A stretch of DNA of 49,850 bases from Minisyncoccota bacterium (lineage in GTDB: Bacteria > Patescibacteriota > Minisyncoccia > Phycocordibacterales > UBA9973): positions 1-49,850 of the forward strand of contig DATJJU010000010.1 of the NCBI GenBank assembly GCA_035491955.1, written 5' to 3'. Position 1 is the first letter of the stretch; every line of letters begins with the position of its first letter. Below, one piece after another: positions 8,601-45,429 of the stretch. The notes under the pieces were generated by a model. The model worked only from the letters and a program-made list of their open reading frames with translations, was not told the DNA's origin and searched no databases. A program made the position numbers and the translations under genes.

Positions 8601-9121
8601 CTCCGAGCCTATGATTTTTATTCATAAAAACGCAGAAAAACCGGCGGTATAGCCAAGTATTTTGCTTGTCTCCGCCGCAGGGCGGTTTTTTAGTCTAAAG
8701 ATCAAAGGTTCGTTTTTTGAAAAATACATCCTGTCCTCTAGTTGTGTCCATCTAATTGATGCGCACGGCAGGTAATAGAGAGACAGAATTTTTTGTTATT
8801 ACGGAGCGGTCCGAAATAATAAAGAAAGAGAACATCGTATCTATTTAAAGCGTAGATACGAATTATGATTTCTAGATTTCCTAATAGGAAATTAAGAGCA
8901 TATGGTGGATGCCTAGGTTCTACATGGCGATGAAAGACGCGAGAGGCGGCGATACGCTTCGGGGAGGTGCCTCTAACCTTCGATCCGGAGATTTCTGAAT
9001 GGGGAAACCCTATTGAGCAAACCTCAATAATCTACTCGCATAAGACGAGTGGAAGCGCACCCCGGGAAGTGAAACATCTCAGTACCGGGAGGAAAAGAAA
9101 AAAATGCAACGTAGTTGCGAT

Positions 9122-9163
<42 letters not shown>

Positions 9164-9387
9164 TCTGTCTTCGGATAGGGGTGTTGTAGGGCAGTAATGT
9201 CGTTTTACGAGAAGAGTTACAAAGTATATGTATAGAAAAAGTTGTTGGAAACCAACACCATAGTAGGTGATAGTCCTGTATTCGAAATATATATACCTCT
9301 TTTATTACTGTTCCTGAGTACTTCAAGACACGAATAGCTTGGAGGAATCCGCCAGAACTAACTGGTAAGGCTAAATACATTGTAGAA

Positions 9388-9428
<41 letters not shown>

Positions 9429-10006
9429 GTCCGATAGGACAGTGAAATAGTACTGAAACCATATGCTTACAAGGAGTCGGAGCGGGTATTTATATCCGTC
9501 ACGGCGTGCCTATTGAAGAATGAGCCAACGAGTTTATGTGTGCGGCTTGGCTAAGGGCCAAAGGTCCGGAGTCGCAGGGAAACCAAGTGTTAATAGCGCG
9601 TAATTGGTCGTACACATAAGACCCGAAGCCAGGTGAGCTACCCATGAGCAGGGTGAAGTGTTGAGAAATCAGCATGGAGGCCCGAACCGGTATGTCGTAC
9701 AACGCATTCGGATGACTTGTGGGTTGGAGTGAAAAGCTAATCGAACCTGGTAATAGCTGGTTCTCTCCGAAATAGCTTTAGGGTTAGCGTCAAATGATCC
9801 CATTGGGGGTAGAGCACTGGAAGGTTTCGACAGGGAGCAATCTCGCGACGCCTATCAAACTCCGAATACCAATTGGTTATAATTTGGCAGTTAGACTACG
9901 GGGGCTAAGCTCCGTTAGTCAAAAGGGAAACAGCCCAGATCTCTAAATAAGGTCCCAAAATATACACTCAGTGCATCTTAAGGAGGTAAGATTTCTTCGA
10001 CAATGC

Positions 10007-10038
<32 letters not shown>

Positions 10039-10835
10039 GAAAGCGTAACAGCTCACTCATCAAGAGATCTCGCGCCGCAGATAATCGGGGCTTAAGTGTA
10101 TTACCGAATTTGAGGGCTCATGCATTAGCATGAGCGGTAGGAGAGTATTCCACTCTAGCAGTGAAGCCAAAGACGTGAGTCATGGTGGAGCGTGTGGAAG
10201 TAAGAATGTTGGCACAAGTAACCGCAAGCAGGGTGAGATCCCCTGCCGCCGAAACACTAAGGTTTCCTGGGCAACGGTAATCGTCCCAGGGTTAGTCGGG
10301 TCCTAAGGCAATGGTGAAAACCGCAGTCGATGGACACAGGGTTAATATTCCCTGACTTCTGTAGTATTCGATGGAGTGACGAAGAGTAGTAGTATGAGCC
10401 GGTTATTGGATTCCGGTAGGCAACTCGCATGTGAAGGATAGGTAAATCCGTTCTTCTGACTTTAATGTCAACACCAGGGTTGTCTCGTGCAGAGGTACGC
10501 CGAAGCGAAGTCATGTGAGCACACTTCCGAGAAAAACTTCTAAGATTAGTACTATAGAACCCGTACCGTAAACCGACACAGGTAGTGAGGTCGAGTAGAC
10601 CAAGGCGAACGAGTAAGAGATCCCCAAGGAACTCGGCAAATAAGCAGCCGTAACTTCGGAATAAGGCTTCCCCTCAGCAATGGGGGGCGCAGCGAAAGTT
10701 TTCCTGGCAACTGTTTACCAAAAACACAGCTCCCTGCGAACTCGTAAGAGTATGTATAGGGGGTGACACCTGACCGATGCCAGAAGGTTAATTACGGGTG
10801 GTGCGATTATATCAAGCTGACTTGTACAAGCCCTG

Positions 10836-10870
<35 letters not shown>

Positions 10871-11124
10871 TCTACTATTGAAACTTATTTTCGATAGTAG
10901 AAGGACTGGGACTGTTATTCAGTCACGGTTGCATCAAAAAATGCAAAACAGTTTTTGTAAACAAATTAAAACAATAATCATTACATTTCTAGCTACCTAT
11001 CGCATAGTAATATGTGAATAGTCCAGACATGATCAACGAGAGACCAACGTCATGGGTCCCGGATCGTTCTTATAAATAAGAACGATCCGGGATTAAGATA
11101 GAGTCCTTCTGAGAGGAATAGAAG
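10871..11124 (+). mobile_element. 254-nt group I-like intron at 23S position L1931, ORF-less, apparently reduced
   Basis: Interrupts CCTAAGGT^AGCGAAATTCC; exon ends in U and intron ends in G; GAGAC and AAGATAGAGTCC (R/S-like), long P8-like hairpin, GAGA-loop P9. Confidence 0.8.
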
Positions 11125-11431
11125 AGCGAAATTCCTTGTCGGGTAAGTTCCGACGCGCACGAATGGTGTAATGACTGGGAAGCTGTCTCGGGGATTTGCT
11201 CGGTGAAAATACAGTACCGGTGAAGATGCCGGTTACCTGCAGTTAGACGAAAAGACCCCGGAAGCTTTACTATAGCTTGGTATTGGGTATGTTTGTGTAC
11301 TACGTAGCATAGGAAGGAGACTTTGAAGCGCCGATTTCGGTCCGCGTGGAGTCGTCAGTGAAATACTTCTTTGTACATGGGCATATTCTAACCCTGACGG
11401 AAAAAACGTTAGGGAACAGTGCCTGGTTGGT

Positions 11432-11472
<41 letters not shown>

Positions 11473-11725
11473 GTTCAAAGGTACGCTAGGCGCGAATGGA
11501 AACCGTGCCGATAGTGCAATGGCATAAGCGTGCTTGACTGTAAGACGGCCATGTCGAGCAGGTACGAAAGTAGAACATAGTGAACCGACAATTCGCATTA
11601 GATGCGGTTGAAGATTAACGGATAGAAGCTACTCCGGGGATAACAGGCTAGTTCCGCCTAAGAGTTCATATCGACGGCGGAGTTCGGCACCTCGATGTCG
11701 GCTCACCTTATCCCGGGGCTGGAGA

Positions 11726-11758
<33 letters not shown>

Positions 11759-11785
11759 AAGGTACGCGAGCTGGGTTCAGACCGT

Positions 11786-12298
11786 CCTGAAGCTGATCAT
11801 GTTTACATAATCGGCTGAAGGATCGTCTGAATCCCATGAGGAAAATTTTTTAATTATTTTTAATGAAATAAAAAATAATGTTAGGTCTTTTCGTCTAATA
11901 AAAGTAAAGCTTGCAAGTATTACCAAATATTTGTAAGAGAAAGATAGTATAAATGAAACCAATACTTATTACGGCGGTCTCATACAGCAATGTATGACGA
12001 CATGCTCAACTAATATCGGAGAAACCCGCCAACGGCGGGCAACACCGAGGGAAGTATGGTTTGTGAATTTCATAGAGGATTTATTCCTTAAAAAGTGTCT
12101 GTTAGCTCAATTTGGGTAGAGCAGTGGTTTTTGGTACCATTGATATGGGTTCGAGTCCTGTACAGGCAGCTTAGGCAAATTATTTAATTTGCCTCTTCTA
12201 TGAAATTCATAAACTAATACACCCGTAGAGACTGAATGTTGAGATTCCCTCTGGGAATAAGTTACAGTCCATTCCATACAGTAATGTGTGAAAAGAAG
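11786..12298 (+). mobile_element. 513-nt group I intron at 23S position L2593, no homing endonuclease, contains a tRNA
   Basis: Interrupts AGACCGT^CGTAAGACAGG; U before and terminal G. P3 CTCAAC/GTTGAG, P4-P5 TCGGAGAAACCCGCC..GGCGGGCAACACCGAG, P7 GACTG/CAGTC, P8, GTAA-loop P9. Confidence 0.93.
12096..12169 (+). tRNA. tRNA-Gln(UUG) nested in the L2593 intron
   Basis: Acceptor TGTCTGT/ACAGGCA plus G73; D-arm GCTC/GAGC; anticodon stem GTGGT/ACCAT with loop TT-TTG-GT; T-arm ATGGG-TTCGAGT-CCTGT; no encoded CCA. Confidence 0.85.
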
Positions 12299-12678
12299 CG
12301 TAAGACAGGTTGGTCTCCTATCTACTGCAGGCGTCGATGATTGAGGAAATTCGCTCCTAGTACGAGAGGACCGGAGTGAACGAACCTCTGGTGTACGGGC
12401 TCTAGCGCCAGCTGGACTGTCCGGTAGCTATGTTCGGAATGGATAACCACTGAAAGCATCTAAGTGGGAAGCCAGTTCCAAGATTAGTCATCATTTGAGG
12501 GCCGTGAGAGATGATCACGTTGATAGGCATTAAGTGGAAGCGTAGCAATGCGTTGAGCTGAGATGTACTAATTGCCCGACTCCTATTAGGAAATCTGGAA
12601 ATCATGCCCGTATTTAATACGGACCAGAAACAAAAAACAAAATTCAAAAAACGAAAATAAACAAGCTTGAACGCTTTG

Positions 12679-43257: not shown

Positions 43258-43442
43258 AGTGGTCGCTCTCAATTTTGGGAGGGGTTGTTTGAAAATTGTA
43301 TACAAATGCATGTCCGTCTATTTTTCCAAACTAGACGGACAAAAATCTAAACATAAATTAACACCAATTATATTCCCAGTAGCAAAAGAGAAAGTCATTT
43401 TTCTTTTGCTTCAGTCTAGTCTGAGGCTTCGGCCGAAGACTT

Positions 43443-45243
<1,801 letters not shown>

Positions 45244-45429
45244 ATTGAGATAGTTCTGAGGCATTGCCGAAGAATTGATACGATCGATACTCGCAAGAGA
45301 AAGGTTTTGGTAACTGACTTAATAGTTACTCCTTGCCGCTAGGTTATGCGGCGAAAATCCTATTGTGTGTATCTATAGAGCACGGAATAGGTAGACTGGA
45401 GCAAAAGAAAGGTGGCATAATGGTGTCAC

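Follow-up and report, generated by a model that had tools for sequence, protein, structure and literature searches.

The window, by which we mean the whole stretch of 49,850 nucleotides that was analysed, carries a 23S rRNA gene whose model match extends from 8882 to 12590, that is 3709 nt for 2925 model positions, and the 5S gene lies next to it. The 16S gene (43442-45245) measures 1804 nt for a model of 1533 positions and therefore also contains about 270 nt of insert; about 31 kb separate it from the 23S and 5S genes, to which it is therefore not linked. In the 23S gene, a 254-nt insert occupies positions 10871-11124 of the forward strand at site L1931, where it splits a universally conserved stretch, ...GGUCCUAAGGU / AGCGAAAUUCC.... 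Its flanks are exact (...GGTCCTAAGGT, insert, AGCGAAATTCC...), with U (T in the DNA) as the last base of the 5' exon and G as the last base of the insert, just as the original prediction had delimited it. The insert has no ORF, and its fold is far more stable than those of shuffled sequences (z = -8.8). A second insert of 513 nt lies at site L2593 (11786-12298) and has an Rfam group I match of 24.7 bits over 11951-12291; by sequence reading, it appears to have P4-P5-P6. The assembly (96.6% complete, 17 contigs) contains a single 23S gene and no uninterrupted L1931 junction, and therefore the L1931 insert must be removed or tolerated. The features assigned to it and to its exons are given in Table 1.

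Table 1. Predicted features of the L1931 insert and the adjoining 23S exons (window coordinates).
Feature	Position	Strand	Pairing or basis
5' exon -12 to -5 (CGGUCCUA)	10859-10866	+	pairs with intron 10907-10914 ("P1 extension")
5' exon end AGGU, P1 5' strand	10867-10870	+	5' splice site after 10870
Hairpin A, from the first intron nucleotide	10871-10901	+	covariation
Helix B 5' strand GGACU	10903-10907	+	partner 11020-11024
Second exon guide U GGGAC UG	10907-10914	+	pairs with 5' exon -5 to -12 (RNAalifold)
Hairpin C, UGUU 10913-10916 / AACA 10960-10963	10913-10963	+	MFE fold, 79-90% paired
A-rich joiner, 8-45 nt in the family	10964-10991	+	variable length
Internal guide GCUACCU	10992-10998	+	exact complement of the ligated junction AGGU/AGC
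Hairpin D (P2-like), GUAA loop 11007-11010	10999-11019	+	covariation
Helix B 3' strand AGUCC	11020-11024	+	partner 10903-10907
P3 5' strand CAUGAU	11028-11033	+	covariation
6-nt linker CAACGA	11034-11039	+	where canonical introns place J3/4, P4-P6 and J6/7
P7 5' strand GAGAC (11040-11044), then J7/3	11040-11048	+	invariant in 118/118
P3 3' strand GUCAUG	11049-11054	+	covariation
P8, long perfect hairpin in the window genome	11055-11094	+	outer pairs covary
J8/7 (AAGAUAGA) and P7 3' strand (GUCC)	11095-11106	+	invariant in 118/118
Helix E (P9.0-like), UUCU 11107-11110 with AGAA 11120-11123	11107-11124	+	covariation
3' exon	11125-11135	+	AGC 11125-11127 with guide (P10); AUUCC 11131-11135 with intron GGAAU

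The insert is not an isolated case. BLAST with the window insert found inserts of the same type at L1931 in 11 of 60 relatives, of which 8 belong to the genus (36 relatives examined) and 3 to other families of the order (24 examined), and a scan for the pair of P7 and J8/7 motifs, with one genome per species, gave at least 119 loci. Among the matches listed, 131 small inserts were extracted, 121 of them distinct and every one at L1931; together with six longer forms that have P4-P6, they provide the comparison across relatives that the original prediction had called for. The small inserts are mostly 189-257 nt long, with one of 353 nt and one of 365 nt. Judged by this length (365 nt at most), none of the 131 is ORF-sized. 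About 150 nt of extra sequence follows the P7 3' strand in one member (L070), and a similar amount lies within the hairpin C loop of another (L013). Nearly all hosts among the matches listed are Patescibacteria-type assemblies, with record titles naming Paceibacteria/Parcubacteria groups, Saccharibacteria and Gracilibacteria. Three contigs (L023, L036 and L079) are labelled Elusimicrobia, Nanoarchaeia and Segetibacter and carry the small intron in a Patescibacteria-like 23S gene; these labels are probably binning errors.

An anchor-based parse could read 110 of the 121 distinct inserts, leaving 11 unparsed. All 110 have a terminal G and a 5' exon that closes with ...AAGGT, and in each of them the distance from the 5' strand of P3 to P7 is 6 nt, as had been counted for the window sequence. 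According to this parse, all members that could be read lack P4-P6 where canonical introns have it, and this absence is a conserved trait of the family. The 254-nt insert is accordingly placed, by its sequence and its predicted pairing, in a conserved and numerous family of group I-type introns that are very small and have no P4-P6, so that the minimal intron originally proposed for a single locus reappears across many diverged genomes.

The secondary structure was evaluated with an alignment of 118 distinct inserts of 185-260 nt, extended upstream by 12 nt and downstream by 16 nt of exon sequence, and pairs were counted for a structure written from the window sequence. In these 118 rows, 91.4% of the cells are paired, compared with 76.1% in shuffles and 36-43% when the partners are slid, and 39 of the 58 pairs changed on both sides. 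RNAalifold, which was blind to the written structure, recovers hairpin A, hairpin D, P3, P8, helix E and P10, and adds a helix with the 5' exon. The two helices of the core that vary both covary: P3 (11028-11033 with 11049-11054) shows two-sided changes at 5 of 6 pairs, with 98.3% of its cells paired, and P8 has 6 of 7 pairs changed on both sides, with its closing pair (columns 325-380) read as CG in 81, GU in 23 and UA in 5 rows, while its inner 3 pairs are mostly unpaired across the family. All 4 pairs of P7 are complementary and invariant, and J8/7 is likewise the same in 118 of 118 sequences, so the earlier placement of P3, P7, P8 and J8/7 stands. Covariation is impossible for P7, P1 and P10 since they or their exon partners are invariant. 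From likeness to the group I consensus, A11041 would be the bulge of P7 and G11042 would belong, with C11105, to the candidate guanosine-binding pair.

Window position 11033, the last base of the P3 5' strand (column 302), covaries with the J7/3 base 11047 (column 317) as U/A in 85, C/G in 29 and C/A in 4 rows; the invariant G at the start of the P3 3' strand is another possible partner. The association may represent a base triple or an alternative register.

At the 3' end, the original prediction had drawn a GAGA-capped P9 (UUCU with GGAA). This pairing is formed in 69.9% of cells and fails where the 5' strand is AACU, and it is replaced by helix E, in which UUCU pairs with AGAA (98.5% paired, 4 of 4 pairs changed on both sides, two of them with 47 and 42 double changes). 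The loop of helix E bears GGAAU (11115-11119), and the omega-G is position 11124. The common ending AGAAG of the L1931 and L2593 introns was correctly observed; the other shared string, GACATG.TCAAC, does not appear to mark equivalent structure, as by sequence reading CUCAAC would be the P3 strand in L2593.

The Rfam group I model (Intron_gpI, RF00028) gives the window insert 20.1 bits, below the gathering score of 50, and matches the 3' part alone; another copy of the small intron, in genome G061, scores 11.8 bits. The alignment to the model has good posterior values at P8, J8/7 and the P7 3' strand, and in the region of the P3 3' strand, P4-P6 and the P7 5' strand 25 nt replace 106 model positions.

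The first 150 nt contain a second set of conserved helices. In hairpin A, all 9 counted pairs show changes on both sides, and 93.8% of cells are paired; its inner pairs 22-86, 30-85 and 31-70 came from further analysis of the alignment, including RNAalifold. Helix B occurs as GGACU/AGUCC in 72, UGACU/AGUCA in 25 and GGAUU/AAUCC in 6 of the 110 parsed inserts, and 3 of its 5 pairs changed on both sides. Hairpin C shows few double changes, and its pair 110-183 is paired in only 54%; the base of its stem overlaps the exon guide, and its loop carries a lineage-specific extra hairpin (10928-10949). Hairpin D is a GNRA hairpin across the family, with 7 of 7 pairs changed on both sides; its closing pair, 261-285, came from further analysis of the alignment. 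The second base of its tetraloop (11008, column 273) is associated with the P8 pair 11059/11090 (columns 329/376), with GUAA accompanied by C-G in 75 of 78 and GAAA by U-A in 19 of 34 sequences. After correction for the tree, 1-2 of 6 supported independent pairs are concordant (p of about 0.5), which is too few independent changes, and we take the association, as expected of an L2-P8 tetraloop contact, as a lead only.

The sequence GGACU (10903-10907) also fits the identical AGUCC of the P7 3' strand (11102-11106), with 94.1% of cells paired across the family, and the single-sequence MFE fold prefers this partner over helix B; it could represent a competing fold or a folding switch. As the main fold, the MFE pairing (10902-10907 with 11102-11107) was rejected, since it produces 29 U.C mismatches, whereas helix B shows 24 compensating U-A pairs at the corresponding place.

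The pairing of this domain with the exons was also evaluated. The 5' exon helix added by RNAalifold (columns 1-8 with 103-111), which we call the P1 extension, contributes 8 bp, and its both-side changes are CG106/UA7/UG4 at columns 1 and 111, GU65/GC19/CG12 with 20 G.G mismatches at columns 2 and 110, and CG114/UA4 at columns 5 and 106. The guide motif is kept as GGGAC, AGGAC or GGAAC in 110 of 110 parsed inserts, GGAAC being the form that matches the 5' exon variant of Saccharibacteria. The internal guide, G(C/U)UACCU in the family, can be divided into GCU (10992-10994), which forms P10 with the opening 3 nt of the 3' exon, and ACCU (10995-10998), which forms P1 with the final 4 nt of the 5' exon. 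In the 118 rows, P10 is 100% and P1 99.2% paired, and the sole changes are C-to-U changes giving wobbles, 15 in P10 and 1 in P1. The original prediction had seen no clear U-G pair in P1, and this was borne out, as U(-1) faces an A of the guide in all 118 small forms and the U.G pair at the 5' splice site is replaced by U-A. Further downstream, the intron GGAAU pairs with AUUCC of the 3' exon in 97.3% of cells, with 2 of 5 pairs changed on both sides (AU87/UA28 and UA91/CG16/AU4); where the exon reads AUACC, GUACC, GUUCC or UUUCC, the intron sequence tracks the change. Judged from these compensating changes, the intron is co-evolved with both exons, which is hard to explain unless the exons must be brought together.

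From these pairings, the P1 extension, P1, hairpin D and helix B read as meeting in a four-way junction with one unpaired base (A11020). The scissile bond would lie where P1 meets hairpin A, and hairpin A would be followed by one nucleotide and then helix B. The possibility that the first 150 nt are filler or a spacer was rejected because of the conserved covarying helices and exon guides found there; in the predicted structure, this part is the substrate-binding half of the ribozyme.

Longer introns at the same site provide the context for the missing domain. A search of 301 genomes with the loose pattern GTCCTAAGGTB gave three L1931 introns of 373-385 nt. Its matches cannot be used as a prevalence estimate since the pattern is too short (26 of 30 loci lay outside 23S genes), and the tally of 61/301 was discarded. 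A metagenome scan for G-type guides gave three complete L1931 introns of 497-746 nt and one incomplete intron; 111 of the 115 loci matched in that scan were chance matches outside L1931. A signature pattern for P6, J6/7 and P7 matched in 23 of 401 genomes, mostly in introns at other rRNA sites. The six complete long forms (L142, L163, L164, L255, L204 and L251) thus cover 373-746 nt. All six begin with hairpin A, followed by GGACU or GGAUU, then GGGAC or AGGAC, and then the guide; hairpin D and the 3' strand of helix B are present in all except L163. They have in common with the small form the site, hairpin A, GGACU/GGGAC, the guide position, the type of P3, P7 and P8, and J8/7. They differ in having J3/4, P4, P5, P6 and J6/7 between the P3 5' strand and P7, as well as a P9 hairpin, and in the base opposite U(-1), which is G in five of the six, a count that is biased because G was required in the metagenome scan, while the count for the small forms is unbiased. 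The RF00028 scores are 55.4, 49.0 and 39.3 bits for L163, L142 and L164; L255, L204 and L251 gave no RF00028 match at E <= 0.001, and their P4-P6 was assigned by eye. L164 as delimited ends in U and not in G, so that either the omega-G is missing or the boundary differs.

A LAGLIDADG_1 gene is found at least in L204, and L251 is of similar length. The L204 gene encodes 155 aa (94.1 bits), lies in the P8 loop at intron nt 231-698, and extends at its 3' end into J8/7 and the P7 3' strand. The idea that P4-P6 was lost along with a homing endonuclease gene was rejected, as P4-P6 lies intact upstream of this gene. It was also considered whether the upstream domain of the small form (10903-11024) is a relocated P4-P6; this was rejected as well, because the long relatives carry both, and the region in which the original prediction asked for a hidden P4-P6 (10908-11020) contains none. 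Since the longer L1931 introns share the 5' domain and carry a canonical P4-P6, the small form is, on this comparison, a natural deletion derivative of a longer L1931 intron from which P4-P6 and P9 were lost.

We therefore propose, with a probability of roughly 0.6, that the insert is a compact group I-derived intron which is removed from the pre-23S RNA by the ordinary two-step guanosine-initiated mechanism without P4-P6. The case for splicing comes from the invariant candidate guanosine-binding helix, J8/7, the omega-G, both exon guides and the location in a single-copy gene. In the structure supported by the comparison, the two guide segments (10907-10914 and ACCU 10995-10998) hold 12 nt of the 5' exon, and the 3' exon is held by GCU (10992-10994) and GGAAU (11115-11119). 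In the proposed mechanism, this substrate domain, hard-wired to P3 by a link of 3 nt, would set the splice site in the core, and docking of P1 onto J4/5 of P4-P6 would no longer be needed, which would fit the replacement of U.G by U-A. Once the first step is complete, hairpin A would yield to P10, helix E would present the omega-G, and the exons would be joined; the ligated exons would read ...CCUAAGGU followed directly by AGCGAAAU. The ancestor of such an intron would have been a longer L1931 intron that already had this 5' domain, and P4-P6 and P9 would have been lost. The more far-reaching version, to which we give slightly less than an even chance, is that the family forms a natural and widespread class of self-splicing group I introns without P4-P6, in which a pre-existing 5' domain takes over the positioning of the substrate by binding 12 nt of exon upstream of the splice site and by wiring P1 to P3 via the four-way junction, the wobble having been exchanged for U-A. 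Against splicing of the small L1931 introns, a U-A splice-site pair and a P1 of 4 bp are unfavourable in the introns that have been studied.

Of four sequencing runs compared with the window, none covers 10897-11112, and the best runs shared at most 0.47 of the sampled words, all of them conserved exon words. Exon-exon joints in these runs were rejected as evidence of splicing, as they are short contigs of conserved exon sequence (shorter side 21-27 nt) that also occur in a DNA run.

The alternative that survives best keeps the same core and adds a helper in place of P4-P6; the helper could be the pre-rRNA as it folds or a protein of the host (a ribosomal protein, a chaperone or a maturase-like factor). 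When P4-P6 is removed from the td ribozyme by engineering, activity persists at a rate about 1000-fold lower (Ikawa 2000, cited in the available part of PMC2879505). By analogy, the retained activity would count for autonomous splicing and the 1000-fold cost against it, and with nothing at the place of P4-P6 the small intron may profit from assistance, as many natural group I introns need proteins according to the portion of PMC2813881 available. However, the intron encodes no protein of its own, and since its hosts belong to several classes and have very small genomes, such a helper would have to be widely conserved. We consider this alternative unlikely, though it deserves more weight than those below.

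A clearly smaller chance is given to the reading that the insert is never spliced, being either kept in the mature 23S rRNA or cut out by RNases without ligation to give a fragmented 23S. The original prediction held that retention is unlikely to be tolerated, which was too strong, since an intron at L1931 in Simkania is on record as unspliced (title of Everett 1999; site table of PMC1995217). Against this reading, the candidate guanosine-binding helix, J8/7 and the omega-G are invariant in 118 diverged sequences, and both exon guides are kept with compensating changes, for which it offers no explanation. The ends of the insert also do not pair with each other as in intervening sequences of the RNase III type but form separate local hairpins, A and E. 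The usual sites of bacterial 23S intervening sequences are helices 9, 25 or 45, and the present site is L1931. The accessible text of PMC11270868 names other sites for such sequences and states that rRNA inserts of CPR bacteria are removed from the transcripts.

A further idea of the original prediction was that P4-P6 may come in trans from a second group I intron that the precursor contains, for instance that at L2593. This we regard as very improbable: the L2593 site is interrupted in 40 of the 45 readable small-intron loci (86 further loci are unreadable) and the window L2593 intron appears to have the domain, but the site is uninterrupted in the other 5 loci, and locus L026 has the small intron as the sole insert in its 23S between model positions 912 and 2925 (2227 nt for 2014 positions), with no other RF00028 match at E <= 1 in its genome (G061, of unstated completeness). 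Moreover, only 3 of 61 relatives, and 0 of 36 in the genus, yielded a match to the uninterrupted L2593 junction, although lack of such a match may also arise where the 23S gene is not assembled; the small intron itself is present in only 11 of the 60 relatives besides the window genome. Interruption at L2593 is thus near-universal in relatives with or without the small intron, and its co-occurrence reflects the base rate and says nothing about a partnership.

P4-P6 is regarded as part of the universal group I core and is the best-studied RNA folding domain, its J4/5 site recognises the wobble at the splice site, and to our knowledge it is present in every natural group I intron described. For example, the group I introns of Azoarcus and Anabaena tRNA genes are about 200-250 nt long, have no ORF and use GNRA tertiary contacts, with a full P4-P6 and a U.G pair. 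The small L1931 intron is similar in size, in lacking an ORF and in its GNRA loop, but it has no P4-P6 and a U-A pair. In terms of classification, the group I core and the guides are present by sequence, but two defining features, P4-P6 and the U.G pair, are absent. We found no description in the literature of a natural group I intron without P4-P6; the CPR survey PMC11270868 classes rRNA inserts by the Rfam model, without analysing their structure in the consulted text, and its supplements may list the small inserts. The bacterial and organellar L1931 introns described so far (Simkania, Thermotoga, Synechococcus), as presented in the available part of PMC1995217, have the same 23S site and a group I core in common with the window intron. 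They are IC1-like introns of 654-700 nt with a LAGLIDADG gene, a complex P5 and no P2, whereas the window intron has neither ORF nor P4-P6 and contains a P2-like hairpin. A group I core without P4-P6 is also shared with the engineered td or P3-P7 "minimal catalytic domain" ribozyme in the consulted section of PMC2879505; the latter is a laboratory deletion with a rate about 1000-fold lower, whereas the L1931 family is natural, abundant and selected, with an elaborate exon-binding domain.

With more than 100 distinct members selected in single-copy rRNA genes without P4-P6, the family bears on which parts of the fold catalysis truly needs. It further raises the questions of how a substrate helix can be positioned by covalent wiring instead of docking and of whether the small hosts supply a helper. 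If the more far-reaching version of the proposal is true, nature can dispense with P4-P6, and the minimal catalytic domain, which has been put forward as the ancestral group I ribozyme, has a natural equivalent in this family. The existence of the family also accounts for the failure of the Rfam group I model to detect many rRNA inserts of these bacteria, and its members offer constructs of about 200 nt suited to in vitro splicing, chemical probing or cryo-EM.

The L2593 insert of the window holds a complete tRNA-Gln(UUG) at 12096-12170, detected by ARAGORN and by the Rfam tRNA model (54.4 bits), at the tip of a long hairpin that we read as an extension of P6. A second tRNA-Gln(UUG) gene lies elsewhere in the genome, on contig C1. 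Among the 35 loci scanned, 33 of which include a complete L2593 insert, the intronic tRNA is present in the window locus only.
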